Shown: positions 5,307-57,077 of the stretch, one piece after another
Numbering within the stretch: position 1 is the stretch's first letter
Layout of the letters: each line of letters opens with the position of its first letter
Assembly (NCBI GenBank): GCA_037481775.1
Contig: JBBFKZ010000008.1
Location: 1-64,000, forward strand
Length of the DNA: 64,000 bases
Origin: Candidatus Bathyarchaeia archaeon
GTDB taxonomy: Archaea; Thermoproteota; Bathyarchaeia; Bathyarchaeales; Bathycorpusculaceae
Direction: 5' to 3'
The notes under the pieces: generated by a model
The model's database searches: none
What the model was told of the DNA's origin: nothing
Seen by the model: the letters and a program-made list of their open reading frames with translations, nothing else
Made by a program: the position numbers and the translations under genes

Positions 5307-5321
5307 AAAAAGAGGGAAAAA
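5307..5321 (-). terminator. Putative archaeal oligo-T terminator after the beta-propeller gene
   Basis: TTTTTCCCTCTTTTT on the minus strand about 25 nt after the stop codon. Confidence 0.45.
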
Positions 5322-5345
5322 GAGTTTTGCTTCGCATCAGCACGT

Positions 5346-30606: not shown

Positions 30607-30608
30607 AC

Positions 30609-33745: not shown

Positions 33746-35743
33746 TCAATTATTGAAACGTTGTAGAGTATCAGGAAACAGGTTGCTGCGGACCGCGGAG
33801 ATAATGGGCGCTGCGCTAAGTTCTTCTAGCTGAAAATATTTGCCGCCCATTTCAGCGCATATCTGTTTCACGAGACCTAACGTGATGAAATTACGTTCAG
33901 TGTCTATGGCAATTGAATTTATTCCAGCTGTGCCTATTGCACGCGCTACAGCTTTTGCCTCTTCCACCGGATCGCCGCCATTTAGTGGAACATTTGCTCG
34001 ACCATCAGAAACCAAAACTAAAAGTGGAATTGTCTCTTTATCTCGCTGCATATACTCGCGGATAACTGTTAGCCCAAGATTTAATCCGTGAGCCATCGGG
34101 GTACGACCGCCCGTGGGCAAGTTAGCCAAGCACTTCTGGGCAAGATCGACACTGTTGGTTGGCGGCAAGACTAGTTCAGCGGTTTTTTTCCTAAAGGCAA
34201 CCATACCTACGCGATCGCGACGCTGGTACGCATCAAGCAAAAGAGAAAGTATGGCGCTTTTGGCGGCAGTCATTCTCTCTTCAGTAGCCATAGAGCCGCT
34301 GGCGTCAACCACAAACATGATCAGGTTGCCTACTTTCCTTTCCCGGACTTTTTCTCGTAAATCAGATTTTTCAATAAGCAATGCATTTGCTCCGCTGGAG
34401 CCGTTTCTTCGCTGAAGCTGGTAAGGTGCAGCAGCTCTCAGAGTAGCGTCAAAAGCCAAGTCAGTCACTTTCCCTTTAGGAATTGCGCTGTCTACATAGC
34501 GTCCTGTCTTGGCTTTGCTTCTGCTTTTGGATCGCCTTCCGGCGGAATTACGCGGCATCTGATCTAAAACAGGCGTGGATAGGCGTTTAACGGGATATGG
34601 TGATCCAGCGTTAAAGACTTGCTCTTTTTCAGGTGTCTCATTTTCTTGTGGTTGCTCATTTTCTGAGGAATCACTTTCAGATTGCGATTGAGGTGGTTCT
34701 TTATTTTGGCGCCAGTTCCGAACGCTTTCCTGAAGCTGCTGCTGCTCCAGCTTGGGTTCTTCGAAAGGTTGGCGCCGTCGCCGATGAGGTAGCGCTAGCT
34801 CGGCTGCTTCTATAATATCTTCCTCGGTAACTTCTGTGCGCCCTTTAAAAGCCGCGATGGTGCAAGCGGTTTTGTAAATTGTGATGTCGGCGCGGTGGCC
34901 ATCGACGCCGAAGTCTATGCAGATTCGCGTGATTAGATCAAGCATTTCATCGCTTAATTTCACGTTGGGCAGGAGCTTTCTGGCCTCTTCGATCTTGCGG
35001 CGCATTTGCTCTTGAGCACTTTGATACTCCGCGATGAATGATGCAGGGTCATTTTCGAAGGCAACGCGCCTGCGCACTATTTCAGCCCGCGCTTCTTTAT
35101 ACGGGATGCCTTTGACTTCGACTGAGAGCGCAAAGCGATCTAACAGTTGAGGACGTAGCTCACCCTCTTCAGGGTTCATTGTGCCTACTAAAATGAACTG
35201 GGCGGGGTGGCTGAATGAGATGCCCTCGCGTTCTACAAAATTTACGCCCATGGCTGCAGCGTCGAGTAGAACGTCAACGAGGTGATCGTCCAGCAGATTC
35301 ACTTCATCGATGTAGAGGATGTTTCGATTGGCTTCTGCGAGGATTCCAGGCTCGAAGTGTTTTTCGCCTGTTTTGATTGCTTTTTCAATATCAAGCGTAC
35401 CGACAAGGCGGTCTTCTGTGGCGCCGAGAGGTAACTCGACTACAGAAACGGATCTTTTGGTAACAGGGATTTTCTCGCCTTTAGTTACTCGTGCAACACA
35501 TGTATCGCACATATCTTTGGGACGCGCAGGGTCGCAATGAAAAGGACAATCAGCTACTACGTCAACTTCGGGCAATAGATTAGCTAATGCGCGCACCACC
35601 AAGGATTTGCCTGTGCCCTTTTCGCCGCGGAGTAGAACTCCGCCAATTTTTGGATTTATAACGTTAAGAATGAGCGCCAGCTTCATTTTTTCTTGTCCAA
35701 CTATGGCGCTGAAGGGGTAAACGGTTTTGGTTCGCCAACGCAT
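33746..35743 (-). CDS. ChlI-ChlD-like fused chelatase ATPase (AAA+ plus vWA), presumed partner of CobN
   Basis: [51 protein letters not shown], acidic linker, DASGSM MIDAS, GGRTP, VSDGRAN. Confidence 0.92.
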
Positions 35744-35765
35744 TCTGCATTCTCCCAGCTATATT

Positions 35766-35782
35766 GGTTGGATTATCCATTT
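35766..35782. promoter_or_regulatory. 17-bp palindromic operator copy A (chlID operon)
   Basis: GGTTGGATTATCCATTT, directly downstream (in transcription direction) of the TATA box at 35784-35789. Confidence 0.7.
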
Positions 35783-35795
35783 ATATAAATCTTGG

Positions 35796-35822
35796 TTCAA
35801 CTAAAATTTAATACAGGTTGAA
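35796..35822. promoter_or_regulatory. 27-bp upstream element copy A
   Basis: TTCAAC-taaaatttaatacag-GTTGAA, 6 nt from TATAAA at 35784-35789. Confidence 0.7.
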
Positions 35823-35916
35823 TACATAAAAGGGGGATAACAAAACCACGAAATAAGCCATAAAAAGTAAAAAAGGAAAATGCGTCCTTTACAACAATAG
35901 AGCCATTCAGAGTTGC

Positions 35917-37098
35917 TTATGGATACGTGAACACTCCAGTTAACTCAGCATTGAAGAACCTTTGTATGTACTCCGCATGTATCGCAGCAGGATCAATGTC
36001 TTGGAACAAATTTGGATGTAGCCACTTTGCGAAGTATAGCAAACCAATTACGTCACGATCAACCAACAGCACGCTTTTAATCACATAGACAGTACCGTTC
36101 TTCACAGCTTTTGTTTCGCTTAGCTCTGGCCTAGCTAATATGCTGTTTCTCAAAGTTTGCAAAGACGCTAAATCTTCACCATCCAAGTATGTGGACATCC
36201 GAATAACAATAGCAGGGTTAGCCTCGGCCACGAATTCTGCGCTCAACTGTGGACTGGAGGTACTGGCATTTTCAGCTATATTTATTCCACCAGCATCAAC
36301 TATCAGTTTATCGTAAGAACCACCTGGACCCGTGCTGAACCAGAGCTTGTACCATTCGAAGTAGACTAACGGTTTCTCGCTTCGTGAAAGAGCGGCAACT
36401 CGATTTTTAACCAGATTCACATAATACGTTTCGTAGTTTATGAACTCCGTTGCTTTCTGCTCTGCTTGCAATATCAAGGCTAAATTGCGTATGCACTCAT
36501 ATCTTCGGCTGCCTGTCAAGGTATCCTCCATAACGGCTATTCCCGCATCTTCTAGTTTCTTTCGGTTTTCATCGGTTAAGCGTTGGCTAGCAAGAACCAA
36601 ATCAGGCTTTAACTCAACTATCAGTTCAAGATTCGGTTCCATGTCAGTGCCTACGTCAGGTAATTCCAAAATTGACTTGGGCAGGATTGCTTCAGCGTCT
36701 GAGCTTAATGAAGCACTCCGCGCTACGACTTTGTCGCCTGCACCTAACACATGCACAATCTCTATCATAGTAAGACAAATAATGCGTTTCACAGGAACAG
36801 CTACGGTAACATTGGCGCCATTCGCGTCAACCACAGTGATGTTCGAGATCTGTGGTGCTTCCGGTGATTGGGTAGCGTTTGGTTCAATTGTTGGCGAAGG
36901 CGAGGGCGTTGGCGTAGCCGTAGAAGATGGTGTCTGCGAAGGCGTAGGAGAAGCACTGGTTGGGGATTGGATAGGAGATTGTGAAGGAGTTGGTGTTGGC
37001 GATGTTGATGGCGATTGCGATAGGATGTTGTAGCCGCCGTAAACCGAAGCCGCAACTACAACAGCAACAATAGCAGCCACAAGAATAACACGCCTCAA
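35917..37098 (-). CDS. BtuF/FepB-like substrate-binding protein 2
   Basis: Paralog of SBP1: TM anchor, P/S/T linker, PNLELIVELKPD, AGGINIA, AKWLHP, ends FTYP. Confidence 0.88.
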   Translation of the reverse strand: MRRVILVAAIVAVVVAASVYGGYNILSQSPSTSPTPTPSQSPIQSPTSASPTPSQTPSSTATPTPSPSPTIEPNATQSPEAPQISNITVVDANGANVTVAVPVKRIICLTMIEIVHVLGAGDKVVARSASLSSDAEAILPKSILELPDVGTDMEPNLELIVELKPDLVLASQRLTDENRKKLEDAGIAVMEDTLTGSRRYECIRNLALILQAEQKATEFINYETYYVNLVKNRVAALSRSEKPLVYFEWYKLWFSTGPGGSYDKLIVDAGGINIAENASTSSPQLSAEFVAEANPAIVIRMSTYLDGEDLASLQTLRNSILARPELSETKAVKNGTVYVIKSVLLVDRDVIGLLYFAKWLHPNLFQDIDPAAIHAEYIQRFFNAELTGVFTYP

Positions 37099-37188
37099 AA
37101 ACTATTCACCTCCTCATTATTGGTTATTGAAACTTTGTAAATCAAACAGATTGCTGTAATTTGCCAATGTTTGCGCGGCAACATGCTT

Positions 37189-37205
37189 GGATGGATTATC
37201 CATAG
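37189..37205. promoter_or_regulatory. 17-bp palindromic operator copy B (SBP2)
   Basis: GGATGGATTATCCATAG, 5 nt from TATAAA at 37211-37216. Confidence 0.75.
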
Positions 37206-37222
37206 TTTTATATAAACATTAG

Positions 37223-37249
37223 TCAAACTTGAGTTAAGATGAGGTTGAA
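37223..37249. promoter_or_regulatory. 27-bp upstream element copy B
   Basis: TCAAAC-ttgagttaagatgag-GTTGAA, 6 nt from TATAAA. Confidence 0.7.
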
Positions 37250-37386
37250 TAACCTAATCTACAAGCCTATATCGTTAAAAACGAACATGAGGAGCTTATT
37301 TAGCAGGTATACAAAGGAAAACAACTTTTATAGGAATTATAATGAAACTGAAAAGAACAGATGAGGCAAAGGCCGGGGTGTGTTAA

Positions 37387-37794
37387 ATGAGTGGAGAGAT
37401 GAGGGCATCGCTGTTTGCAAAATGCGGAATAAACTGCCGAACATGCGTTGGTTTTTTCGGCTATAAATTGAATGGCGAAAGAACAAATCCATGCGGCGGC
37501 TGCCAAACAAGGCAGGAAAAATGCACGTTCTTTAAAAAGCACTGCAAAAATCAAGCAAACAGAGAAAAAATCGAATATTGCTTTGAATGTGATGACTTTC
37601 CATGCGCTGAACTGAAGAAAATTGATGCATACTATAATCAGAAATATGGAACGAGTTTAATTGAGAATTTTATGTATATAAAAATAAACGGCTGGGAAAA
37701 ATTTCTGGAAGGGGAAGCAGAAAAATGGGAATGCCCGCGTTGTGGCGGCGTAATCTGCTCGCAAACAAAAAGATGTTACACATGTAATCCTTAA
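37387..37794 (+). CDS. DUF3795-like Cys-rich protein
   Basis: CGINCRTC, CGGC, YCFECDDFPC, WECPRCGGVIC...CYTC. Confidence 0.75.
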   Translation: MSGEMRASLFAKCGINCRTCVGFFGYKLNGERTNPCGGCQTRQEKCTFFKKHCKNQANREKIEYCFECDDFPCAELKKIDAYYNQKYGTSLIENFMYIKINGWEKFLEGEAEKWECPRCGGVICSQTKRCYTCNP

Positions 37795-37863
37795 AAGGGG
37801 CAAGATTTCAGGCGGATCAAGGCATTACTTAAAAATATAAAATATGAGAATGGGGTAGATTTT

Positions 37864-38388
37864 TTAATGCATGAATGTCGCGCGGGGGTTTTGTCCCAAA
37901 ATTTGTGCAACCGCTCGCAAACTTAGCGTGTCGCAAATCTTCTCCACGATCTGAACAGATTCCTCATCAGGTCCTGCTACAGCACCGCGCACTATGTAAG
38001 GGAAAAAGCCCTCATCATATGCAGCAAGATAAGTTGCTAGAACACAGTTCAGGGCGCTAAGCCCTATGAGAATTACAGTATCGCAGCCTTTATCCCGAAT
38101 CATATGGGCTAACGCCGTCTTGACAAAAGCGTTTTGATGAGTCTTAATAACTTTGGCATCTTCAGCCATCGCGGTTAAACTTGGGATAAGTTCAAACTCT
38201 TTTGTCCCGGGCACAATACCTCGCTCGGCATAGGAATGGTAAGTAAAGATGATCGGGGCGCACGCTTTTCGAAATATTGAGATCGCTTCGCTCATTGCAG
38301 TTATGCGCTCAGTCACTGATCGTTTCAGTCCTTCAGACAGTTCTAGCCAGCCATTCTGAACATCAATCACAATCAACGCCGGTTTCAT
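37864..38388 (-). CDS. Isochorismatase-like cysteine hydrolase
   Basis: ALIVIDVQN, KTHQNAF, GLSALNCV (D-K-C triad). Confidence 0.85.
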   Translation of the reverse strand: MKPALIVIDVQNGWLELSEGLKRSVTERITAMSEAISIFRKACAPIIFTYHSYAERGIVPGTKEFELIPSLTAMAEDAKVIKTHQNAFVKTALAHMIRDKGCDTVILIGLSALNCVLATYLAAYDEGFFPYIVRGAVAGPDEESVQIVEKICDTLSLRAVAQILGQNPRATFMH

Positions 38389-38451
38389 AGTAATGCGCTC
38401 CTATTGTGGTTATGCTTTATTCCCCTGATGTCGCTCATAAAGGAGTACTCA

Positions 38452-41400
38452 TCATTTCTTTTCATTGGTGCTTTCAAGCAAACCATCAACCTGCAAATAA
38501 ATCTGTTGTAGCTGCCTTTTCATATCCTCTGAGGCGTGCCACATGCCCCGTTCAATAGCTTCTAAAAGGCGTTCAGTCATGTTGTATAATGCGTAAGGAT
38601 TCACTTCTTTCAGCCACTCCTGCATTGATTTATCAAGGACAAATTTTTGCGCTAATTCCTCATACATCCAGTCTTCTATGACTTCTTCTGTTGCATCCCA
38701 TCCTAGCACGTAATCCATCTGTCGGGAAAACTCGGCGGCTCCATGGTAGCCATGTCTTTTCATGCTTTCAATCCACTTAGGATTAACGAGGCGGGCTCTG
38801 AAGCAATACTTAATCTCTTCAGCGGTACTTCTAATTTTAACTCTTTTGGGATCAGAAGTGTCCCCATAAAACGAGCGCGGCGCTTTCCCAGTAATCGTCT
38901 TGATGGCTACATCCATGCCGGCGTGATAAGAATAAGCATCGTCTATCTGTAAAGCGTCATATTCACGTTGATCCCAATTTTTTACGGTCAGTTCAACTTT
39001 GCTTAATCGTTTCTTAAACAAGTCAGGCGCTGTTAACCCAAAGTTTTTTCTGCCATAAACATAGCAACCCCAAGTGACATAAATATTTGCCAAATCCTTC
39101 TGGTCTTTCCAGTTTTTGGAATCTATCGCTTCATTAACGCCTGACCCGTAACCACCGGGTATATCGCCGAAGATTCTGTAGCATGCTTCTTCACGCGCCT
39201 TAACAGCATCGACGCCCTGCCCAATACGTTCAGCTATTTCCTCCTCCACATGTTTTATGATGTAGTTTTTGTCAGAAGTTTCTTTTAGTTCAGCAACTAA
39301 AGCAACGGCTTCGTCAATAAGATGAACAATGTTAGGGAAGGTATCTCTGAAAAGGCCACTTATTCGGACAGTAACGTCAATTCTCGGCCGCTTCAGTACT
39401 TCAAGCGGAATAGGTTCTAAGCCTATAACCCTACCGCTGGATTCTTCCCAGATTGGCTTAACGCCCATTAAATAGAGAATTTCAGCTATATCGTCGCCGT
39501 TTGTTCTCATGCAATCAGTGGCCCAAACAACAATAGCAACTGTTTCTGGATACTTCCCCTCTTCTTCCAGATACCGTTTTAGTAAGGCGTCGCCTAGTTC
39601 TACGCCAACCTTCCAAGCGGCAACAGAGGGCACACAACGGGGGTCTATTGAGTAAAAGTTGCGTCCGGTAGGCAAGATGTCGGCGTTACCGCGTGTTGGA
39701 GCACCAGAAGGCCCTGTTGGTACATAATTACCGTGACATGCAGATGTAGTGTTAGTTAGCTCTTCGGTTGTTGCATTCAATGCAGGAGCAAGAAAATTGG
39801 AAATATAAGATAGACAGTGCCGCAACTTGGCATTAACCTCGCCGAACAGTTCATAAAGCAAAGAATCAATTTTTTCTTCTTTGAAATTTACAGCATGGAA
39901 TCGGTTTATTAGTTCAAGTGCAAGTTGGTTCAACTCGTCAAGAACATCGCCATTAGTTCGGTTATCTTGACGCAGAGCACCGCGATTTGCCAGCAACTCT
40001 TCATAGTTGTAACCTTTCAATTCAGCCAATGACTGACGTAAAGAGGGAACACTGCCATTATCTAGCCGCGTCAATGCTACCAAAAACTCTTCTAGCCTCG
40101 AGTCCGTGGGAGGCTCGCCTAGCACATGTAATCCGTCTGTGATCTGCGCGTCAGATAATTCATTCAAATAGCCATGCAGCTGCTCTACAAAGGCATCAAA
40201 ATCCGCGAACGCCTCTTCTTTAGTGACTTCTAAATCGCTGTTGAGGTTAGCTTGAACTACGGCGTCCCAGATTAACTTCTTAAGAATTTCAAGTTTTCCA
40301 GGGTCAGCAGTTTTGGCATGATAATACTCTTTCAGTTGAACACAGATTTTAGCTAAATCATCATAGGAGTCAGCGTTATGCATTACTGGAATTAGATAAT
40401 CAACTAAACAGGCGTAACTCCGTCTTTTCGCGCATGTACCCTCGCCTGGATCGTCGATAAGATATGGGTAAACGTTGGGCAAATCGGAAATAACAATGTC
40501 AGGAAAACATGAAGCGGAAAGCCCAACAGATTTACCCGGCAGCCATTCCATTGTGCCATGTTTGCCAAAATGAATGATAACGTCAGCTTTGAAAACTTCC
40601 CGAATCCAACGATAATAAGCATAATAATGATGTGGGGGAGGAAGATCGGGGCTATGATAAATAGATGCAGGGTCAGTTGTGTAGCCTCGAGGAGGCTGGA
40701 GACCGATGAATACGTTACCATTAATTATTCCAGGAATTAATAGGTCGCCTTTGTAATTGAAAAGTTTCCCAGGTGGCTTCCCCCAATGCTTAACCAGTTT
40801 CTCTTTGACATCTACAGGCAACTCATCAAACCATTTAATGTACTGAGCAAGGGGGATTTTAGCCACAGCTTTTTCTGCAAGTTCATCAGGACTTAACCAT
40901 CTTTGATCATTAGTTAACCCGCTAATTATTTTTTCCATCAATTTCTGGCCGTTTTCAGGTAAAAACTCCAGTGAATAGCCTTGTTTCTGCATTTCTCGCA
41001 AGAGGTTTATAGCTGAAGCTGCAGCATCGAGTCCTGCAGCGCTACCAATATTGTCATTTCTTGGTGGATAGTTATGAAAAATCAGTGCAACCTTCTTTTT
41101 CTCGTTAGGAATATATCGCAGTTTTGCCCAGTTAATGCTTAATCTGACAAGCTTGTCAAGACGCTCAGGAATTATTACATGCGAGGTTATTTTTGCGCCG
41201 GTCACCGGATCTTTTTCAGAGATCTTTCTAGCGGCTATTGGCACAGTGATTACCATACCATCAAACTCAGGCATTGCAACATTCCATGCTACTTCAGTAA
41301 AACTTAATCCCAGTAGACTACTACACCACTCCTCAAAAGTGTTATATGTTACAATCGACTTGAGAACGGGAACCCCAAACATCTTAAAAAGCTCGTTAAC

Positions 41401-42195
41401 CGATTCGGAGCTTGGCATGAACGCTGCAACAGAATGTGCAAGTGTGCTGATGACAATGTCAACAATAGGTTTTCCGTCCTTCATGAAGTAGTTTTCGATA
41501 ATCCACTTCAAACTTTTAGCTGAAACATCATTCGCTGAGAAAAACACTAAAATTGCATTCGCGCCGTGCTGTTCGATAGAGCGGATTAGACTGTTGGCGA
41601 GGTTAATGTCGCCCGTTTTTAAAGGGTCGTTATGGAAAAAAATTCCAACTGTGGGTCTTCCACGAACGTATACTTTTTCCATGTATTCAGCTAATGTGCA
41701 GATATGACCAAAGTTTGGGTGATATATTGCTTGCAATGGCATCTTTTTTGGCGGCTTAGCCTCGAAATGGCTTCCCGCGAAACGGTTTGCTAAAAAAAGC
41801 AGCAGGTTTTCATAGTTTTCTATTCCACCATAATTGATGTATTGATGGATCTTTTGATAATCATCTTGGTTAACAGTGGAGCAAGCGACGATTTCTGGGT
41901 CAGATTGGACATCCGACGCGAACAAAGGCACATGTGCATCGCGCAACGCGGCTATAACGCGATCAAAGCCTGTGAACCCTTTTTTGCCACCCATTAAATG
42001 CAGGAGTGTTACGTGAGATGTTCGCGCAAAATTGATGAATGCATCCAGCAGTTTTGGGTCTGCTAAGTCTTCTGCAGTTCGTGGAAAAACATCTATAAGC
42101 ATACCCGTCTTTTTAGCGAGGGTCTTAACTGCTAGGGTAATAATTTCTACTTCATGTGAAAGAACCACAAAAGCAAGTCTCATTTTTTGCTTCAC
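38452..42195 (-). CDS. cobN: CobN/ChlH family chelatase large subunit (paralog 2)
   Basis: MPEFDG, NYPP, HFGKHGTMEWLPGK, PSGAPTRG, LPTGRNFY, NPKWIESMKRHGY; clearly paralogous to 26851..30606. Confidence 0.9.
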   Translation of the reverse strand: MKQKMRLAFVVLSHEVEIITLAVKTLAKKTGMLIDVFPRTAEDLADPKLLDAFINFARTSHVTLLHLMGGKKGFTGFDRVIAALRDAHVPLFASDVQSDPEIVACSTVNQDDYQKIHQYINYGGIENYENLLLFLANRFAGSHFEAKPPKKMPLQAIYHPNFGHICTLAEYMEKVYVRGRPTVGIFFHNDPLKTGDINLANSLIRSIEQHGANAILVFFSANDVSAKSLKWIIENYFMKDGKPIVDIVISTLAHSVAAFMPSSESVNELFKMFGVPVLKSIVTYNTFEEWCSSLLGLSFTEVAWNVAMPEFDGMVITVPIAARKISEKDPVTGAKITSHVIIPERLDKLVRLSINWAKLRYIPNEKKKVALIFHNYPPRNDNIGSAAGLDAAASAINLLREMQKQGYSLEFLPENGQKLMEKIISGLTNDQRWLSPDELAEKAVAKIPLAQYIKWFDELPVDVKEKLVKHWGKPPGKLFNYKGDLLIPGIINGNVFIGLQPPRGYTTDPASIYHSPDLPPPHHYYAYYRWIREVFKADVIIHFGKHGTMEWLPGKSVGLSASCFPDIVISDLPNVYPYLIDDPGEGTCAKRRSYACLVDYLIPVMHNADSYDDLAKICVQLKEYYHAKTADPGKLEILKKLIWDAVVQANLNSDLEVTKEEAFADFDAFVEQLHGYLNELSDAQITDGLHVLGEPPTDSRLEEFLVALTRLDNGSVPSLRQSLAELKGYNYEELLANRGALRQDNRTNGDVLDELNQLALELINRFHAVNFKEEKIDSLLYELFGEVNAKLRHCLSYISNFLAPALNATTEELTNTTSACHGNYVPTGPSGAPTRGNADILPTGRNFYSIDPRCVPSVAAWKVGVELGDALLKRYLEEEGKYPETVAIVVWATDCMRTNGDDIAEILYLMGVKPIWEESSGRVIGLEPIPLEVLKRPRIDVTVRISGLFRDTFPNIVHLIDEAVALVAELKETSDKNYIIKHVEEEIAERIGQGVDAVKAREEACYRIFGDIPGGYGSGVNEAIDSKNWKDQKDLANIYVTWGCYVYGRKNFGLTAPDLFKKRLSKVELTVKNWDQREYDALQIDDAYSYHAGMDVAIKTITGKAPRSFYGDTSDPKRVKIRSTAEEIKYCFRARLVNPKWIESMKRHGYHGAAEFSRQMDYVLGWDATEEVIEDWMYEELAQKFVLDKSMQEWLKEVNPYALYNMTERLLEAIERGMWHASEDMKRQLQQIYLQVDGLLESTNEKK

Positions 42196-42268
42196 CGTCT
42201 ATTCAATACTTCATAAAAAAGGAAGAGGAACCATGGCGACTTGTGCCAGTATCATTTGCTGCAAAACG

Positions 42269-43408
42269 TTATGGATAGGCATATGTGCCCTCCAAGGCAA
42301 CTCCGAAGAAAGTTTGAATCATTTCCCTGTGTATAGCAGTTGGATCTACATCTGCAAAAAGATCAGGATGGAGCCATTTGGCTAAGGTCAGCAAGCCAAG
42401 GGGGTTGCGTGTTCCTGTTCGGAAGTAATGATCCATAACATAGACCTTACCATTTTGGACAGCCTTTGTAGCACTGAGAGCAGGTCTGTTCATTAGCTCC
42501 TCACGCATAGCTTGAAAATCTTTGATGTCGTGAGTTGCACTGCTAATCATGCGGACTATTATGTCGGGGTTGCGCTCCGTAACATACTCAGGACTCAAGG
42601 TTGGATAGGTAACAGTCTGGTTGGCAGCGAGATTTATTCCACCAGCATCGATTATCATCTGATGGGGTAAACTAGCGTTATTGCAACTATACCAAGCTTT
42701 AACCCATTCGTAATATACTAAGGGCTTTTGATCATCTTTCAGATCTTTGACACGATCCTTAACAAGATCAGTTATGCCGTCCATAAATTTGATCAGGGCA
42801 TCAGCCCTTTCCTCTTTACCGAGGATTTCGCCTAGATAAGTTATTATAGGCTTTACACGGTCCGTTTGGGAAGGATTATCAATGATTACAGGAACATGGA
42901 GAAGCGATTCGATTTCAGCGCGGGTATCATTGTTAATTCTAGTATCGGCAACTATCAAATCAGGTCGCATTTCCGTTAAGGTTTCCATGCTTAAACCGCT
43001 TGATCCGTAAACTACTGTCAGGTTTAAAACAGAATCTGGAAAAGTAGAATAAAGGTCACGCCCAACTATTTTATCGCCGGCGCCTATAGCATAGATTATT
43101 TCTGTAAAACCACTTTGTAAGCTTACAATACGGGTCACAGGAAGGGCAATAGTTACTTGAGTCCCCGTGACATCCACAACAGTAATTGTCTTGTTTTGTG
43201 GTGTTGGTTGAGTTTCTGTAGGAGCTGGCGTGCTTGTTGTTGAAGGAGAAGCAGTACTCGAGGGCGAGGGAGAAACAACTGGACTTGACGAAGGCGATGT
43301 TGACGGTGACGAAGGCTGTGGCGAATAGAGGAAGATGTATCCACCATAGACAGAAGCGATAACAATAACTGCAACAAGAATTGAAACTATAAGCCCTGTT
43401 CGTTTCAA
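42269..43408 (-). CDS. BtuF/FepB-like substrate-binding protein 3
   Basis: Paralog of SBP1/2: TM anchor, P/S/T linker, [30 protein letters not shown], ends YAYP. Confidence 0.88.
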   Translation of the reverse strand: MKRTGLIVSILVAVIVIASVYGGYIFLYSPQPSSPSTSPSSSPVVSPSPSSTASPSTTSTPAPTETQPTPQNKTITVVDVTGTQVTIALPVTRIVSLQSGFTEIIYAIGAGDKIVGRDLYSTFPDSVLNLTVVYGSSGLSMETLTEMRPDLIVADTRINNDTRAEIESLLHVPVIIDNPSQTDRVKPIITYLGEILGKEERADALIKFMDGITDLVKDRVKDLKDDQKPLVYYEWVKAWYSCNNASLPHQMIIDAGGINLAANQTVTYPTLSPEYVTERNPDIIVRMISSATHDIKDFQAMREELMNRPALSATKAVQNGKVYVMDHYFRTGTRNPLGLLTLAKWLHPDLFADVDPTAIHREMIQTFFGVALEGTYAYP

Positions 43409-43506
43409 GCGTGCTCACCTTCGTCGTTTATTATTTTAAATTGGTTCGTGATTGCGGGTATGATGTAGTGAGTGGGTTGTTGTTTCATGTTTACCGCCTT
43501 ATTCAT

Positions 43507-43523
43507 GGATGGATTATCCATGC
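43507..43523. promoter_or_regulatory. 17-bp palindromic operator copy C (SBP3-cobN2)
   Basis: GGATGGATTATCCATGC, 5 nt from TATAAA at 43529-43534. Confidence 0.75.
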
Positions 43524-43540
43524 ACATATATAAATTTTGT

Positions 43541-43567
43541 TTAAACTCAAGTTAAAATAAAGTTGAA
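43541..43567. promoter_or_regulatory. 27-bp upstream element copy C
   Basis: TTAAAC-tcaagttaaaataaa-GTTGAA, 6 nt from TATAAA. Confidence 0.7.
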
Positions 43568-43621
43568 CAATTCATGGAGTCAAAAAAATCCAGAGTTGTC
43601 AAAAATTACGCGAGATATCTG

Positions 43622-44506
43622 CTAATCGGAGCAGAAAATTGTGCTTAATTTTTCCATGTTAGCGAACAATGCGCAGTGACCGCAACACTCAAAAATTTCT
43701 AAACGTGCACCAGGAACCTTCGCGGAGAGCCTATAGGCATTCTCAAGCCGGCACGTCTTATCTTCGGCGCCATGCCAAACAAACAGTTTGCCCGCGGGAA
43801 CCCGTGAAACTGGTATATCCCAAGGCTTCATGAAAAGCTTATGCTCCTGAAGCACGGCTTTAACACCATAATTGCCCTGGCGGAAAGCTTCAGCCATAGA
43901 TTGACACAGCACCGCAGTCCAGGCGGGGTTAGAGAAAAATTTCAAATCATCCTTCGAGTAGCCACGCAGCAGTCGCTGGCCTTCTCTTGAAGCCAAGAAA
44001 GCCTCAACGTTATGGTTAGCTTTCAGCACTTGAGAACGCAGGTTTCTTATGGCCAATAACCCTAAAAGCGGGAGCTTCATAGCAAAACGGGCAAGAAGCG
44101 TATTATGCGCCGTCGCCACATCGAAAGGCAAAGCAGGTGCGCCGGCGACAACTGCGCGTGTTACGCGTTCGGGAAATAGCAAAAGGTAGGCAAGCGCGAA
44201 AACTCCGCCGCCAGACCAGCCGAGAACGCCAAATTGTTTAAAACCCAATTGGTCAGCGAGGAAGTTGAGGTCGCTGTTGAAGTCGCAGAGGCTTTTTACA
44301 GGTTTGAACGTGGATAAGCCGTAGCCGGGTCTGTCTACACCAATTATCTGCAGTTTCGCCTGGGAGACAAGCTCTTTCAAGAGCAGAATTTCCAGTCGGC
44401 TACTTGCTGTGCCATGGAAGTAGATGACTGGTCGTCCGTCGCCGATTGTTAGGTACCCAAGTTTTCGTCCGTCAGGTAAAGATAACGTCTGTCCAGCCAA
44501 ATGCAC
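43622..44506 (-). CDS. Alpha/beta fold hydrolase
   Basis: FHGTASSR, DRPGYGLS, GWSGGG, WHGAED, GH. Confidence 0.88.
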   Translation of the reverse strand: MHLAGQTLSLPDGRKLGYLTIGDGRPVIYFHGTASSRLEILLLKELVSQAKLQIIGVDRPGYGLSTFKPVKSLCDFNSDLNFLADQLGFKQFGVLGWSGGGVFALAYLLLFPERVTRAVVAGAPALPFDVATAHNTLLARFAMKLPLLGLLAIRNLRSQVLKANHNVEAFLASREGQRLLRGYSKDDLKFFSNPAWTAVLCQSMAEAFRQGNYGVKAVLQEHKLFMKPWDIPVSRVPAGKLFVWHGAEDKTCRLENAYRLSAKVPGARLEIFECCGHCALFANMEKLSTIFCSD

Positions 44507-44612
44507 TTACATCTCTGCTTCGCGCATGTAAATATGCAAATGCATAGGGCACAGCGCAAATATTAGCGTTTAGATGACGCCGCCGCCATGCGCGTGGTAA
44601 GCGCTTGAGAGA

Positions 44613-45452
44613 TTAAAGGGCTCGCACATCTTTAACTTCATACGTTATCTGTGCTGTTCGTTTAGTGTTTTCTATGTCTATTTTCTCGATTACATGATTA
44701 ACCATTCTGCCGACAACAAGTACGAAAACTTTGAGCCCTCTTGAAGCGGCAACTGCTGTTGCTCTGCTTATGCCGAATTCAAAGTCTGCTTTAAGCCCCA
44801 TCTTGTTTAGAACAGCTCTTCCAACAACGCCTATAACGCCGATTCGATCAGGATTGAATTCCTCATACACCTTTCTAACTTTGGCGATGTTAACGGCTCT
44901 TGAGCCGCCTTCCTTTATGCTGGGCAGTTTAATGAGGAGAACTCTGCCCGGCGATATTTTCACTTTGCCCTGTACATCTTTTAAGCCAACGTCTTCTCCG
45001 GCGTTTGCATCGTTAATAGCAATTCCGAAGGCTTCAACGTTTGGACTGGATAAAGCCACGGCGCATAAAACTCCATTTTTCATGACTAAGCCGACTTTAG
45101 CGCCGGCTTTTATTGGCTGCGTCGCCATGGCGGGGATAAAGTGTTCAACTTTTAGATCCGTCTTGATCAGATTAACATAGCTGTCTAGGTTCTTTTGGTA
45201 GTCTTGAAGTTTCTCTTTGGCTTTGGCCGTTAGCCTGTAATCTGCACGCTCCGAACCTGCTTCTAGCAAGCCCTCCTTCATTAAGGTCTTAAAGTGCTTG
45301 GAGACGGCTTGGATGGTGATGCCAAGCGCTTCGCTTATGTCCTTCTGTCTTACGTGTGGTTGATGCCGCATAATTTCTAATAAGATTTGGAAGTTGGTGA
45401 ATTCGCCTTTGTCACGTAAGAGAAGCGGATGACGTCGAGGCAACTGAATCAA
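44613..45452 (-). CDS. Winged helix-turn-helix (MarR-like) transcriptional regulator with C-terminal putative ligand-binding region
   Basis: QKDISEALGITIQAVSKHFKTLMKEGLL HTH plus YRLT wing; divergent from cbiM. Confidence 0.82.
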   Translation of the reverse strand: MIQLPRRHPLLLRDKGEFTNFQILLEIMRHQPHVRQKDISEALGITIQAVSKHFKTLMKEGLLEAGSERADYRLTAKAKEKLQDYQKNLDSYVNLIKTDLKVEHFIPAMATQPIKAGAKVGLVMKNGVLCAVALSSPNVEAFGIAINDANAGEDVGLKDVQGKVKISPGRVLLIKLPSIKEGGSRAVNIAKVRKVYEEFNPDRIGVIGVVGRAVLNKMGLKADFEFGISRATAVAASRGLKVFVLVVGRMVNHVIEKIDIENTKRTAQITYEVKDVRAL

Positions 45453-45474
45453 CCTGACTTAAACTTTAGTTTAA
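45448..45474. promoter_or_regulatory. 27-bp upstream element copy D (cbiM promoter; overlaps the regulator start codon)
   Basis: ATCAAC-ctgacttaaacttta-GTTTAA, 6 nt before TTTATA at 45481. Confidence 0.7.
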
Positions 45475-45480
45475 CAAACA

Positions 45481-45488
45481 TTTATAAA
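45481..45488. promoter_or_regulatory. Self-complementary TATA box TTTATAAA between the divergent regulator and cbiM
   Basis: Only TATA-like element in the 74-nt intergenic region; reads the same on both strands. Confidence 0.6.
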
Positions 45489-45493
45489 GTTTC

Positions 45494-45510
45494 GGATGGC
45501 TTATCCAATC
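45494..45510. promoter_or_regulatory. 17-bp palindromic operator copy D (cbiMNQO)
   Basis: GGATGGCTTATCCAATC between the TATA box and the RBS (GGTGA) of cbiM. Confidence 0.65.
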
Positions 45511-45526
45511 CGGAAAGGGTGAGAAT

Positions 45527-46216
45527 ATGCACATAATGGAAGGCTTCCTGCCCCACCCATGGTGGGAAATATGGTTTGCAATTTCAATTGTAGTCGTAAT
45601 TTTTGGTGTTTACAAGCTCAAGAAACTCACAGAAAAATTTCCCGAAGCTAAACCGCTTCTCGCGGTGATGGGCGCATTTGTTTTTGTGCTTTCAGCACTT
45701 AAGCTTCCATCTGTAACAGGCAGCTGCTCACATCCAACAGGCTCAGGATTGGCGGCTGTAGTGCTCGGGCCGGCAATCGCTTCAGTTCTTTCGGCGATAG
45801 TCCTGCTTTTCCAAGCTTTGCTGCTCGCGCATGGTGGTTTAACCACGCTTGGTGCAAACATATTCTCAATGGGAATAGTAGGACCAGTGGTAGGCTATGT
45901 CTTGTGGGTGGCCAGCAAAAAAGTGCGGCTACCAACATCAGTGGGAGTATTCATAGCAGTTGCCTTAGCTGATTTAAGCACCTACGTTACCACATCTGTA
46001 CAGCTTGCGCTTGCTTTCCCCTCAACAAGCGTCATGGACTCGTTCATAACTTTTGGGTCAATCTTCGCCATAACACAGATTCCATTAGCCATCGGTGAAG
46101 GAATATTGGCAATTTTCCTTTTCGATTTCTTAGTGAAGTACAAAGGAAGACTCCTTAACGCAATGAACGTGATCGGCCTACGTGCTGACATACAATCTTC
46201 GGAGGGTAAAGAATAG
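45527..46216 (+). CDS. cbiM: ECF cobalt transporter substrate-specific component CbiM
   Basis: MHIMEGFLP N-terminus, LKLPSVTGSCSHPTG, LLAHGGLTTLGAN, TQIPLAIGEG. Confidence 0.95.
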   Translation: MHIMEGFLPHPWWEIWFAISIVVVIFGVYKLKKLTEKFPEAKPLLAVMGAFVFVLSALKLPSVTGSCSHPTGSGLAAVVLGPAIASVLSAIVLLFQALLLAHGGLTTLGANIFSMGIVGPVVGYVLWVASKKVRLPTSVGVFIAVALADLSTYVTTSVQLALAFPSTSVMDSFITFGSIFAITQIPLAIGEGILAIFLFDFLVKYKGRLLNAMNVIGLRADIQSSEGKE

Positions 46217-46492
46217 ATGCAGACGAAGATCAAGTACGCCATTTTAATAGTGATAATGTTGGCACTCTTCATTACACCTTTGATGATGCATCCTTCCGCG
46301 GAGTTTGGCGGTGCAGACAGCGCTGCGGAAGAAGCCATAAGCGAGCAAGGTTACGAGCCTTGGTTCACGCCTATATGGGAGCCGCCAAGCGGCGAAATAG
46401 AAAGCCTATTGTTTGCAGTTCAAGCAGCAATAGGTGCCATCATAATCGGCTATTTTATCGGATATGAAAAGGGGAAAAGAACAAAAGAATAA
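46217..46492 (+). CDS. cbiN: Cobalt transport protein CbiN
   Basis: FGGADSAAEEAI, YEPWFTPIWEPPSGEIESLLFAVQAAIG. Confidence 0.95.
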   Translation: MQTKIKYAILIVIMLALFITPLMMHPSAEFGGADSAAEEAISEQGYEPWFTPIWEPPSGEIESLLFAVQAAIGAIIIGYFIGYEKGKRTKE

Positions 46493-46522
46493 GTGACACA
46501 TACACGAAGATACTGAGCTGTA

Positions 46523-47320
46523 ATGAGCCACTTTAATTTATCAGCGGAAATTGACAGATACGCGTATACAAATTCCTTATCAAAGAATAGCCCAATAACT
46601 AAACTTCTCCTCGCACTTTCATTGCTGTTCATAAGCGTCTTATCGCCGTCCCCAGTGGTGCCCATAGCCGTATTTTTAACAAGCAGCAGCATGATTTTAT
46701 TCTGCGCAAAAATCCCATGGCGCTTCTATCTTAGGCTACTGTGGTACCCAACTGTAATTGTTGCATTAACCTGCGTCATAATTGCGCTCTTTTTCGGCTA
46801 CAAAGAACCGCTTGCAGAGGTAAATCTGCTTGGGTTCAAATGGATCATTTTCAGAGATGGCGTAGCTACAGGAGTCACCACGTTCTTTAGAGTGGCAGGG
46901 GCGCTTTCAAGCCAGTTTTTCCTTGTTCTAACAACGCCAATGACAAGCATATTGATAGTTCTCAGAAAAGCCCGTATCCCCAAGATCATAGTGGAAATGT
47001 CATTACTTATCTACAGGTATATATTTGTCTTCATAGAGGTCATGGAAACCATGCACACCGCTCAAGAGCTACGCCTCGGATATTCGGGTTGGCTGAGGAA
47101 ACTTCGATCAACCGCCATGCTTATTGGAAATCTTTTCATACGAACGTTAGAGCAGGGAGAGCGCACCTTCATCGCCATGAGCGCCAGAGGATACGACGGC
47201 AACATCCGCGTTCTTGAAGACCTGCCGAGGCCAAGCTACGCCGCCTTATTGGGAATCACGCTTTTCGCTGTCGCGCTTGCAATAACTGCATATTTAACAA
47301 TGCACATCGGGATTGTGTAA
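46523..47320 (+). CDS. cbiQ: ECF cobalt transporter T component CbiQ
   Basis: IDRYAY, LTTPM, LIYRYIFV, AQELRLGY, AMSARGYDG. Confidence 0.92.
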   Translation: MSHFNLSAEIDRYAYTNSLSKNSPITKLLLALSLLFISVLSPSPVVPIAVFLTSSSMILFCAKIPWRFYLRLLWYPTVIVALTCVIIALFFGYKEPLAEVNLLGFKWIIFRDGVATGVTTFFRVAGALSSQFFLVLTTPMTSILIVLRKARIPKIIVEMSLLIYRYIFVFIEVMETMHTAQELRLGYSGWLRKLRSTAMLIGNLFIRTLEQGERTFIAMSARGYDGNIRVLEDLPRPSYAALLGITLFAVALAITAYLTMHIGIV

Positions 47321-47325
47321 TCAAA

Positions 47326-48189
47326 ATGCTGTTCAGATTAGAAAATCTGTCCCACAAGTACTCCGATGGCACACTTGCGCTGGATAACATATCATTAAGT
47401 TTTGCTAAGGGAGAAAGAATAGCCCTTCTTGGACCGAACGGTTCCGGAAAAACTACGCTACTACTGCATCTGAATGGAATCCTGAAGCCAACGGCTGGCA
47501 GAATCTACTTTGAAGATAAACCGCTGGAATACTCGCCTAAAGCTTTGCTTGAGCTTAGAAGACGCGTGGGCTTCGTATTCCAAGACCCTAATGATCAACT
47601 GTTCGCGCCGACTGTAAAGCAGGACGTGGCCTTTGGACCGCTAAATCTGGGTCAACCCGCTGGCCAAGTGAAGAAGGTTGCTGATGAAGCTCTGAAGCTT
47701 GTAGGTATGAGCGAGTACGCGGATAAACCACCACATTTCCTCAGCTTAGGGCAGAAGAAGCGGGTTGCGCTTGCTGGAGTTCTTGCCATGAAGCCTGAAG
47801 TTGTAATTATGGATGAGCCAACTTCGAATCTGGATCCACGCGGCACCAGCGAGATATTGCATTTGCTTCTGCGGCTTAACAAAGAGCTGGGACTAACGTT
47901 GATACTGGCTACGCATGACGTGGACATGGTGCCCTTGTTTGCAAGTAAACTATACATATTGAATAAGGGAAAACTCGTGTCGGAGGGCGCGCCCGCGGAA
48001 TTGTTTTCAGATGCAGAATTAATCCGAAGCGTAAACCTGCGCTCTCCACGGATAACGCATCTATTTGAAGTGCTGAAGAAGGAGGACAAGTTGCCGATAA
48101 ACCCGCGGCTTCCACTTACCATAAGCGAAGCAAGAAAAGAAATATTGAGACTTCTAGAATCTAAAAAGCAGAAGAGGACTGAAACATGA
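47326..48189 (+). CDS. cbiO: ECF cobalt transporter ATPase CbiO
   Basis: GPNGSGKTT, FQDPNDQLFAPTV, LSLGQKKRVALAG, DEPTSNLDP. Confidence 0.93.
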   Translation: MLFRLENLSHKYSDGTLALDNISLSFAKGERIALLGPNGSGKTTLLLHLNGILKPTAGRIYFEDKPLEYSPKALLELRRRVGFVFQDPNDQLFAPTVKQDVAFGPLNLGQPAGQVKKVADEALKLVGMSEYADKPPHFLSLGQKKRVALAGVLAMKPEVVIMDEPTSNLDPRGTSEILHLLLRLNKELGLTLILATHDVDMVPLFASKLYILNKGKLVSEGAPAELFSDAELIRSVNLRSPRITHLFEVLKKEDKLPINPRLPLTISEARKEILRLLESKKQKRTET

Positions 48190-52230: not shown

Positions 52231-52240
52231 ACTTTTCCAC

Positions 52241-54604: not shown

Positions 54605-54610
54605 TGCTGG

Positions 54611-55684: not shown

Positions 55685-55693
55685 TCACTTCAA

Positions 55694-56977: not shown

Positions 56978-56994
56978 GGATGGATAAACCGACC
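56978..56994. promoter_or_regulatory. 17-bp palindromic operator copy E (hemA-cbiXC-cbiDETLFGH operon)
   Basis: GGATGGATAAACCGACC abutting the hemA ATG; TATA-like TTAAATATAA at 56998-57007. Confidence 0.6.
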
Positions 56995-57077
56995 GCCTTA
57001 AATATAAGCCTTGCCGTAATTAAAGAAAAGAGGGGCGACCGGCAATCAAATTAAAGCGCAGAATCGGATTAGCCTAC

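Follow-up and report, generated by a model that had tools for sequence, protein, structure and literature searches.

We identified a 29-base upstream element (UP) just 5′ of the core promoters that serve four operons for cobalt and vitamin B12 uptake, and found that it is real and conserved across Bathyarchaeia. The four copies lie within the 64-kb stretch of DNA that was analyzed (the window), one of them next to the gene of a wHTH-DUF7839 regulator. By analogy with archaeal activators, we tentatively propose, with somewhat less than even confidence, that UP is the site of this adjacent regulator, which would activate the target genes and repress its own. We infer which protein binds UP, the sign of the control, and the effector, which would be cobalt or a corrinoid.

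At the cbiMNQO promoter, UP (AATCAACC then TTAAAC-TTTA-GTTTAA; 45447..45475, +) is followed by a BRE-like caaaca (45475-45480, +), the TATA box TTTATAAA (45481..45488, +; site offset 34), and a downstream operator (OP), GGATGGCTTATCCAATCC (45494..45511, +), which lies between the TATA box and the expected transcription start, with cbiM at 45527 (+). The regulator gene (44613..45452, −) diverges from this promoter and encodes a MarR-type wHTH, a beta-barrel, and DUF7839. The remaining copies are on the minus strand. One (43540..43568, −) precedes an operon of a Peripla_BP_2 binding protein (42269-43408, −), CobN (38452-42195, −), and an isochorismatase, with TATA at 43527-43534 and OP, TGGATAATCCA, at 43510-43520 (−). 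Another (37222..37250, −) precedes a second Peripla_BP_2 gene (35917-37098), with TATA at 37209-37216 and OP at 37192-37202 (−). The last (35795..35823, −) has TATA at 35782-35789 and OP at 35769-35779 (−) and precedes a gene for a ChlI/D-type chelatase subunit (ChlID-like, 33746-35743, −), behind which come a binding protein, a FecCD permease, an ATPase, a second CobN, and CbiZ. The preliminary description had placed the four sequences correctly and to the letter, including AAT for AAC at the chlID promoter, and its gene names (chelatase subunit, two Peripla_BP_2 binding proteins, cbiM) were borne out; its range of 35796-45474 clipped the outer ends, the true span being 35795-35823 to 45447-45475.

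The string TCAAC-N15-GTT-N9-TTTATA has exactly four matches in the window (35784-35821, −; 37211-37248, −; 43529-43566, −; 45449-45486, +), against none in any of 100 dinucleotide-preserving shuffles, and these are also its only matches in the whole 1,821,348-base assembly. The looser TCAAC-N15-GTT, with the TATA box dropped, occurs 111 times in the assembly, so the signal is carried by the fixed link to TATA. When a PWM trained only on other genomes was scanned over this one, the four sites ranked 1-4, at 38.3 bits for cbiM (the best of the genome), 32.0 for the ChlID-like gene, 24.9 for the CobN operon, and 24.7 for the second binding protein, and only 12 hits reached at least 8 bits in 1.82 Mb. 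What had been presented as TTCAAC-N15-GTTGAA holds up as a conserved element, but the full dyad is found in only some sites, and the units kept across relatives are TTCAACC and TTAAC-N4-GTTAA. The refined formula, (A/T)TTCAACC-N5-TTAAC-N4-GTTAA, is an orphan half-site plus a 14-bp palindrome adjoining the BRE. The palindrome, TTTAAC-N4-GTTAAA, is an inverted repeat whose half-site centres lie 10 bp, or about one helical turn, apart, which suits a wHTH dimer; in the genus of the window, both arms have changed together, to TTAAAC/GTTTAA.

Across 67 non-redundant regulator-upstream regions of Bathyarchaeia, the 27 motif positions carry a mean of 1.23 bits, against 0.36 bits in the 25 nt upstream and 0.36 in the region downstream of TATA. 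This contrast speaks against plain duplication of whole promoters, which had been raised as a possible refutation, and indicates that UP is under selection. Alignable sequence among the four window promoters begins at (A/T)TCAAC and stops where OP ends. Rigid spacing had also been claimed, and it was upheld: 5 of 91 UP sites had no recognisable TATA; of the remaining 86, 78 have TATA beginning at offset 34, and the others are one base off (offset 33 for 4 sites, 35 for 4). By contrast, the distance from the OP centre to TATA varies from 16 to 20 bp. In several genera, UP recurs ahead of cbiM and of genes for NiCoT, ChlID-type chelatases, and corrinoid-binding proteins. PWM hits were obtained at 6/6 full-length ChlID loci and at 11/11 cbiM loci, the latter overlapping the genomes used for training. 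Beyond the training set, other genera have sites 5′ of genes for ChlID, binding proteins, a second cbiM, and NicO (for example, 47.2 bits at L061, 45.5 bits at L035, and three sites at L086).

The hemA-cbi operon provides a comparison promoter (56978..57007, −), with TATA TTATATTT at 57000-57007 (−) and OP, GGTTTATCCATCC, adjoining the ATG at 56978-56990 (−). As had been stated, the element is missing there (56978-57010, −), and UP was not found at any of 14/14 hemA loci, where the GGAT..ATCC operator alone is present; in all 11 genomes having the regulator (11/11), the hemA promoters carry OP without UP. The two-tier layout behind the earlier suggestion of dual control is thus real, and activation by a bound protein is retained as a proposal.

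Several observations tie UP to the regulator gene. The regulator is encoded by the only DUF7839 gene in the genome, and it occurs with cbiM in the same 11/41 related genomes; UP accompanies its gene even where NicO, ChlID, or a binding protein takes the place of cbiM as the neighbour. In 68/71 loci, the regulator has an in-frame start codon within −4 to +10 nt of where TTCAACC ends, and in the window the longest ORF of the regulator begins at a TTG within the TCAAC of UP. UP thus reaches into the regulator gene itself, at its promoter or 5′ end, as an operator would, and since it adjoins the start codon it is probably also an autoregulatory operator of the divergent gene, a point that the preliminary description overlooked. 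The recognition helix, GITIQA(I/V)SK(Y/H)FK, is essentially invariant, like UP, while OP is variable or degenerate at many loci; the H/Y change in this helix showed no clean correlation with the TAAC/AAAC arm variant. The regulator is predicted to form a homodimer through its C-terminal domains (score 0.69 vs 0.00 for the best control; contact agreement of at least 79% and partner pLDDT of at least 81 across runs); in calibration, the mark for this score was reached by 20/30 proteins solved as homo-pairs and by 1/23 solved as single chains. No solved look-alike was found for the C-terminal domains, and neither a conserved Cys or His cluster nor a fold match was found for the sensor domain. An automatic cluster search also placed the wHTH-DUF7839 family in Methanobacteriota and Thermoplasmatota. 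Because the genomes that have the regulator have both UP and OP as well, phyletic distribution does not distinguish which of the two motifs the regulator binds.

In the mechanism that we propose, a regulator dimer would bind the palindrome TTAAC-N4-GTTAA, whose midpoint is ~18 bp 5′ of the TATA centre (near −45), with its proximal arm adjoining the BRE, and the orphan TTCAACC one helical turn farther 5′ (~−60) would serve as an auxiliary contact or as the seat of a second dimer. From this fixed site, the regulator would aid TBP/TFB assembly at the promoters of the cobalt importers CbiMNQO and NiCoT, the ATP-dependent CobN/ChlID chelatase, and the binding proteins for corrinoid uptake, and the same complex, covering the 5′ end of the divergent gene, would repress that gene. 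A second factor, or a second binding mode, would act 3′ of TATA, on the GGAT..ATCC operator ahead of the start site, and shut off the whole B12 regulon, including hemA-cbi biosynthesis. UP lies a few bp 5′ of the BRE at a tightly constrained distance, the position of an archaeal activator site. Of the earlier label "candidate activator site", a conserved cis-element placed rigidly and directly 5′ of BRE/TATA (78/86) stands, and the bound protein is a candidate activator.

Two features of the promoters speak against activation. By eye, the TATA box (TTTATAAA/TTTATATA) looks close to consensus, as does the A-rich BRE, unlike the weak elements typical of activator-dependent archaeal promoters, and the need for an activator is therefore not obvious. 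In addition, in the consensus as at each of the four window sites, 5-6 nt separate the end of the proximal arm GTTAA(A) from TATA, so that a wHTH dimer on this arm could collide with BRE-bound TFB and not recruit it; because this half-site adjoins the BRE, TFB occlusion is sterically as possible as activation.

The same regulator, loaded with cobalt or a corrinoid, could instead occlude the BRE at the uptake and chelatase promoters, keep TFB off, and so repress them, along with its own gene, a reading that we consider less likely than activation. Near-consensus core promoters should fire unaided, and at divergent loci UP covers the 5′ end of the regulator gene, a repressing position. A regulator paralogue at L073 itself lies behind a UP-TATA promoter in target orientation, and would be under negative autoregulation, the usual kind, only if UP is a repressing site. 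The uptake of metals is usually controlled by metal-dependent repressors, and metal-uptake regulators encoded beside their transporter genes are as a rule repressors; SloR, AdcR, and MntR, all metal-dependent repressors, are among the weak sequence matches of the wHTH, although such hits are generic. However, steric repressors tolerate shifts, as OP does over 16-20 bp, but the position of UP is exact in 78/86 sites, and the same promoters already hold a separate operator at the classical repressing position. Moreover, archaeal activator sites, as described in PMC2995911 and PMC2241852, are found within a few bp of the BRE with little freedom in the spacing, and such a placement is tied to activation in these accounts and in PMC7830388.

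UP may instead be composite, with TTCAACC as an extra half-site for the OP-binding protein (perhaps the adjacent regulator) and the AT-rich palindrome bound by an unlinked transcription factor, so that TATA is bracketed. TTCAACC is a single C/T away from the consensus OP half-site (ttATTCAACCt vs ttATCCAaCa), and because of this resemblance part of UP may belong to that protein; the palindrome and OP are also near-symmetric, ~18 and 17.5 bp either side of the TATA centre at typical loci, and the OP regulon is the wider one, including hemA-cbi, as for a master B12 regulator. We nevertheless regard this arrangement as unlikely: OP shifts relative to TTCAACC, so helical phasing is not kept; OP is degenerate or missing beside the regulator gene at many loci (28/86 sites lack the perfect 4+4 inverted repeat), while UP is almost always there; the OP half-site centres, ~8 bp apart with variable spacing, fit a rigid wHTH dimer less well than the palindrome does with its 10 bp; and the window ORFs checked showed no other transcription factor gene. 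It is more improbable still that UP has no dedicated factor and is the core promoter of the divergent regulator (a TATA-like palindrome and start region), passively copied with a 70-bp cassette to the three other promoters. One cassette is indeed common to the four window promoters, and the palindrome centre lies 22-29 nt from the regulator start codon, where the TATA box of a leaderless mRNA would be expected, with the same geometry at hemA, which is leaderless in this lineage. Against such copying, conservation is base-specific (the C and G of AAC/GTT, and TCAACC at 93-100%) at ChlID, binding-protein, and NicO promoters that have no divergent gene, in several genera, the palindrome includes C/G and makes a poor TATA box, and spacer positions drift while motif positions do not.

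If UP is the activating site of the wHTH-DUF7839 regulator, the promoters would follow a two-input logic, in which a rigid activator site turns on a cobalt-starvation set (importers, ATP-driven chelatase, and corrinoid salvage) and the start-site operator is the off switch for the whole B12 regulon. It is conceivable, though we would not count on it, that the wHTH-DUF7839 proteins make up a novel transcription factor family that senses cobalt or a corrinoid and that UP-TATA-OP is an archaeal, protein-based counterpart of the bacterial B12 riboswitch with such two-input logic. We found nothing in the literature on DUF7839 regulators or on the control of cobalt/B12 genes in Bathyarchaeia. Our results suggest that these uncultured archaea regulate cobalt acquisition, corrinoid salvage, and de novo synthesis as distinct tiers, and they define a testable regulon of one uncharacterised regulator family, two DNA sites, and a clear gene set. 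The same promoters also offer a natural comparison, as UP is base-fixed to TATA and OP floats by several bases, which could help tell recruitment from steric control.

The cobalamin riboswitch of bacteria, as described in PMC2667541, governs the same gene set of cobalt uptake (cbiMNQO), corrinoid uptake (btuF), and B12 synthesis (cob), but as an RNA element in the leader, whereas the control proposed here acts through DNA sites around TATA; an Rfam scan of the 64-kb window gave 0 matches at the gathering threshold to any family, the cobalamin riboswitch included. Among archaeal systems, UP resembles the Lrp-type sites of Ptr2 (M. jannaschii), LysM, and Ss-LrpB (PMC2995911), where a dimer site stands a few bp from the BRE at a constrained position, with extra sites farther 5′. 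Unlike those activators, the regulator here has no RAM domain and the core promoters look strong, and the TBP recruitment demonstrated for Ptr2 (PMC2995911) is only proposed for our regulator. The haloarchaeal GvpE UAS of the gvp genes (PMC2241852) is likewise a bipartite, BRE-adjoining element that serves a divergent promoter pair, with two portions 4 nt apart and an unalterable distance to the BRE. It is built of direct 8-nt units (YGAAAYGA), with a pair of overlapping UAS set between two TATA boxes at a distance of 35 nt, unlike the inverted repeat plus orphan half-site and the apparently single shared or adjacent TATA seen here.

CopR and its cop-motif in Pyrococcus furiosus (PMC7830388) offer a further parallel, with a metal-homeostasis regulator divergent from a transporter gene and a semi-palindrome directly 5′ of the BRE. 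In that account, CopR combines an HTH with a TRASH/His-rich domain, forms Lrp-like octamers, and senses copper to induce efflux, unlike the regulator here, a predicted dimer of wHTH, beta-barrel, and DUF7839 whose putative target genes serve uptake, salvage, and chelation, whose motif is unrelated in sequence, and whose promoters have a second operator downstream of TATA. In P. furiosus, one bound complex of this metal sensor activates copA and represses copR (PMC7830388), the same dual action on target and own promoter that we propose for the wHTH-DUF7839 regulator.

The letters quoted in the preliminary description for the four promoters were confirmed in the window, where TCAAC-N15-GTT-N9-TTTATA matched four times, upstream of the ChlI/D-type chelatase gene chlID (35784-35821, minus strand), two binding-protein genes (37211-37248 and 43529-43566, both minus) and cbiM (45449-45486, plus). 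None of 100 dinucleotide-preserving shuffles contained a match, and in the genome's own assembly (1,821,348 bases, 54 contigs), whose contig C8 holds the window, the only matches were the same four sites. Without the TATA box, TCAAC-N15-GTT occurred 111 times in that assembly, indicating that the signal is carried by the fixed link to TATA. A cassette of about 70 bp is common to the four promoters, which have no likeness upstream of it. The cassette runs from (A/T)TCAAC(C) through eight variable bases, AAC or AAT, four bases and GTT, then three bases and a 6-nt A-rich BRE-like stretch, to TTTATA(T/A)A, 2-7 further bases and a GGAT..ATCC operator (OP) reading TGGATAATCCA(A/T)CC or, at cbiM, GGATGGCTTATCCAATCC.

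A position weight matrix for the upstream element (UP), built from 65 unique sites that all came from other genomes, ranked the window sites first to fourth in the genome (38.3, 32.0, 24.9 and 24.7 bits). The fifth match scored 23.0 bits, and only 12 matches reached at least 8 bits. The UP-like match at C5:57079 (23 bits) is AT-rich and lies close to a Cas6 gene, with an 80-aa ORF of no family after it, and was taken as chance or unrelated. An orphan copy of the cassette was also found on another contig of the genome (C2:36560-36640, minus strand; 2570-2640 of public locus L093), reading TTCAAC-N15-TTAAC-N5-GTTTATATAG and then GGATGGATTATCCA. Its downstream ORF has 17 codons only, and the copy is directed into a convergent diphthamide-synthase-like gene at its 3′ end. 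Either a small or antisense RNA could be made from this copy or it could be a relic.

Orthologues of the regulator encoded divergently from cbiM were present in 10 of 40 related genomes and on 80 public contigs (the best 80 of 122 relatives), its close relatives coming from MAGs labelled Bathyarchaeia, and nearly all of the orthologous loci fetched carry UP between the regulator and its divergent neighbour. Anchored regions gave 72 segments, 67 after dropping pairs more than 85% identical, with the consensus tATTCAACCt.a.tTTAACtt.aGTTAAacaAA..TTtATAag. Mean information in these 67 segments was 1.23 bits per position over 27 motif positions and 0.93 over the next 14 (BRE/TATA), compared with 0.36 bits for the 25 nt on the upstream side and likewise for the rest of the downstream part. 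Conservation is thus selective, and the uniform similarity that the preliminary description would have read as plain duplication was not found, so UP is more than a duplicated promoter. Two units are conserved: TTCAACC with its preceding A (A 93%, T 82%, T 99%, C 98%, A 100%, A 100%, C 100%, C 93%) and a 14-bp palindrome, TTAAC-N4-GTTAA, whose arms read TTAAAC/GTTTAA in the window's genus, a symmetric change on both sides. We are almost certain that UP is a real site under selection. An exact-pattern scan of five relatives gave 14 matches against 13 for the reversed-pattern control, and seven of the 14 were cbiM or ChlID promoters known from protein searches. The regulator-cbiM spacers of three Ca. 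Bathycorpusculum MAGs (L044, L048 and L051) hold a variant, TTCAACC-N6-TGAAC-N4-GTTAA, with one added base before the palindrome and TGAAC for TTAAC, to which the standard matrix gives 4-6 bits only.

The spacing to TATA had been called invariant in the four promoters. Among 91 UP sites of at least 24 bits, 86 have a recognisable TATA box; 78 of these have it starting at offset 34, four one base earlier (33) and four one base later (35). The OP inverted repeat floats: of the 58 sites with a perfect 4+4 repeat, 46 have its centre 16-20 bp away from that of TATA, and 28 of the 86 sites have no perfect repeat. When the TATA centre is set at -26.5, as at hemA, the palindrome is centred at about -45, TTCAACC lies at about -60, and OP extends from roughly -17 to +1. 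The two AAC triplets, one in TTCAACC and one in the palindrome, are 11 bp apart, which places them on the same helix face.

Pfam and NCBIfam assignments define the genes around the sites. The plus strand carries cbiM-cbiN-cbiQ-cbiO (45527-48189) and, after these genes, one for a His-rich membrane protein. On the minus strand lie the divergent regulator, a MarR-type wHTH with DUF7839 (44613-45452), an alpha/beta hydrolase (43622-44506), a Peripla_BP_2 binding protein (42269-43408) in one unit with CobN (38452-42195) and an isochorismatase-family gene, a second binding protein (35917-37098) and the ChlI/D-type chelatase subunit (33746-35743), after which come a third binding protein, a FecCD permease, an ATPase, a second CobN and CbiZ. 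The anaerobic cobalamin pathway is encoded by hemA-cbiX/C-cbiD-cbiE-cbiT-cbiL-cbiF-cbiG-cbiH (48896-56977, minus). The His-rich protein (235 aa; 48186-48893, plus) overlaps the end of cbiO and has the loop HGHLHD...HEHEHEH...HTHPHFH; it belongs to no Pfam family, and its NCBIfam match to RcnA-type nickel/cobalt efflux proteins is sub-threshold (34 bits, cut-off 195). It may be an extra cobalt-handling part of the cbi operon. There are two full-length CobN paralogues (26851-30654 and 38452-42195, both minus) but one fused ChlI/D-type subunit, and a CbiX-type chelatase fused to CbiC is also encoded in the hemA operon; the ATP-dependent chelatase may represent a second route of cobalt insertion under separate regulation. 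An Rfam scan of the window returned no family at threshold, and therefore no cobalamin riboswitch was detected there.

Scanning 80 loci with the UP matrix at 16 bits and classing matches by downstream gene gave 112 matches. These lay before cbiM (69), ChlID (7), binding-protein genes (6) or genes unlike those of the window (13), and the other 17 are faint reverse-strand copies of the palindrome directed at the regulator. The unassigned neighbours include NicO/NiCoT nickel-cobalt permeases (L035, L080) and a binding protein (L057). UP sites outside the training set were found at ChlID of L061 (47.2 bits), a second cbiM of L035 (45.5), L062 (39.9), L086 (four sites, 24-37) and a binding protein of L090 (29.8). 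Cassette stacking as in L086 (CAYSWL010000008.1) is unusual: three tandem promoter-like modules containing UP (24-34 bits) lie within 500 bp at about 5054-5543 on the minus strand, upstream of a binding-protein gene, with another module before cbiM. Among 41 related genomes, the 11 with the regulator are exactly the 11 with cbiM, and UP of at least 19 bits is present at 11 of 11 cbiM loci, which come partly from genomes used to train the matrix, and at all six full-length ChlID loci. The complete genome G040 has UP also at cbiM, where this gene lies 100 kb away from the regulator. In the complete genome of Ca. Bathyarchaeum tardum (L084), UP stands at both the cbiM and the ChlID promoters.

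The hemA promoter differs. In the 11 regulator-bearing genomes it consists of TTATATTT, ten bases and GGTTTATCCATCC abutting the ATG; in the window (56975-57007, minus) the ATG follows the centre of the TATA box TTATATTT by 26.5 nt, a distance from which the hemA mRNA appears to be leaderless, and the 11 regulator-bearing relatives keep this geometry at their hemA loci. No UP match of at least 8 bits was found at any of 14 hemA loci. OP occurs in the window at 35765-35779, 37188-37202 and 43506-43520 (TGGATAATCCA(A/T)CC), at 45494-45511 in front of cbiM (GGATGGCTTATCCAATCC) and at 56978-56990 in front of hemA (GGTTTATCCATCC), between TATA and the expected start site, and it is the sole element at the hemA-cbi operon promoter. 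Its inner spacing and distance to TATA differ by lineage (GGAT-T-ATCC, GGA-ATA-TCC, GGAT-AAACT-ATCC, GGATTAACC). It follows that OP is shared by the entire B12 regulon, and UP is restricted to cobalt import, chelatase and corrinoid uptake; as a description, the two-tier picture proposed earlier is correct, UP being absent from 14 of 14 hemA loci and OP present at hemA in the 11 regulator-bearing genomes. A phyletic separation of UP from OP failed, as the regulator, cbiM, full-length ChlID, hemA with OP, and UP occur in the same genomes. Thirteen ChlI-like loci in regulator-less genomes have neither element, and these encode a different protein and are not a fair control.

Several observations link the regulator to UP. 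The element stays beside the regulator gene irrespective of the neighbouring gene, and of 71 loci where UP is adjacent, 68 have an in-frame start codon for the regulator at -4 to +10 nt relative to where TTCAACC ends. The regulator transcript must then begin inside or beyond UP, so any factor on UP sits over the promoter or the 5′ end of the regulator gene itself. The recognition helix, GITIQA(I/V)SK(Y/H)FK, is essentially invariant among about 80 sequences only 60-80% identical overall, which parallels the near-invariance of UP; OP, by contrast, is variable. The H/Y position does not track the arm variant cleanly, H occurring with AAAC/GTTT in five loci of one genus and with TAAC/GTTA in two others. 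An AlphaFold model (pLDDT 84-89) comprises a wHTH (15-99), a beta-barrel (106-176) and an alpha/beta domain (183-275). The latter two had no significant match in the PDB (best E 6e-3, TM at most 0.37 by query), the likeness of this sensor part to a tetrapyrrole-methylase subdomain was weak and not significant, and the whole protein retrieved only generic wHTH matches. A homodimer through the C-terminal domains is predicted, with a score of 0.69 against 0.00 for the best control, at least 79% contact agreement between runs and pLDDT of at least 81; among solved structures, 20 of 30 homo-pairs and 1 of 23 single chains reached this mark.

The regulator is the only DUF7839 gene in its genome. Public names of the family go no further than 'winged helix-turn-helix' or 'putative' transcriptional regulator, and automatic clusters place relatives also in Methanobacteriota and Thermoplasmatota. 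In one MAG (L073, JAOZHX010000019.1), a second regulator paralogue is itself driven by a UP-TATA promoter in target orientation and without OP (3810-3850, plus), and the ChlID gene beside it has another UP copy. One MAG with the family is labelled Methanocella (L059/G041); in its class, 1 of 60 genomes has the family, namely this one, and its class-level neighbours in the genome collection (59 of 60 without the family) are small (0.6-2.4 Mb). The Methanocella label or bin may be unreliable.

We consider it fairly probable that the adjacent regulator binds UP. That the effect on the targets is activation is a more tentative proposal, to which we give slightly less than an even chance. Repression is a plausible alternative, in which the regulator on UP would occlude the BRE against TFB: the proximal arm lies right against the BRE, TATA and BRE come close to consensus, which leaves no obvious need for an activator, and metal-uptake regulators are usually repressors. 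Set against this is the layout of UP, which fits that of reported archaeal activators. UP may also be composite, as TTCAACC is one base off a consensus OP half-site, or its palindrome may double as the promoter of the regulator gene, as its centre lies 22-29 nt from the regulator start codon, the TATA position for a leaderless mRNA. The co-occurrence of regulator, UP and OP everywhere was likewise counted against the assignment of UP to the regulator, for which the invariant helix and the constant adjacency argue. GGTTGAA, the complement of TTCAACC, was rejected as the regulator's Shine-Dalgarno sequence, being unlike the GGAGG/GGTGA-type sites before cbiM and kept at promoters without a divergent gene.

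In the reading we prefer, UP would be the operator of the regulator, which when bound would activate the uptake and chelatase promoters and repress its own gene, and OP would serve the entire B12 regulon as a repressor operator of the classical start-site type. UP is of a known kind, a promoter-proximal transcription-factor site next to the BRE; it is tied here to a regulator family that is uncharacterised and to a cobalt/B12 regulon on which the searches found nothing in print. Literature searches on DUF7839 and COG1497 found no papers, and searches on archaeal protein-based B12/cobalt regulation of this kind, with supplements and a 2003 comparative B12 study outside their scope, found none among the papers listed. 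The SurR motif GTT-N3-AAC and the TAAC-N5-GTTA-like Phr motif are unlike UP in orientation or spacing.

This reading is favored because a BRE-proximal dimer site at a fixed distance is combined with an extra site one turn upstream, a regulator ORF that extends into the region controlling its divergent target, and a set of metal-related genes, as in reported archaeal activators. Passages of one account describe the position of archaeal activator sites as highly constrained, with additional sites upstream, and the Ptr2 ORF as overlapping the region that controls its target (PMC2995911). For GvpE, activation is described as abolished by any change in the UAS-BRE distance (PMC2241852). A similar layout is that of CopR of P. 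furiosus, a metal sensor divergent from copA with a semi-palindrome directly upstream of the BRE, which in vitro activates copA and represses copR (PMC7830388).
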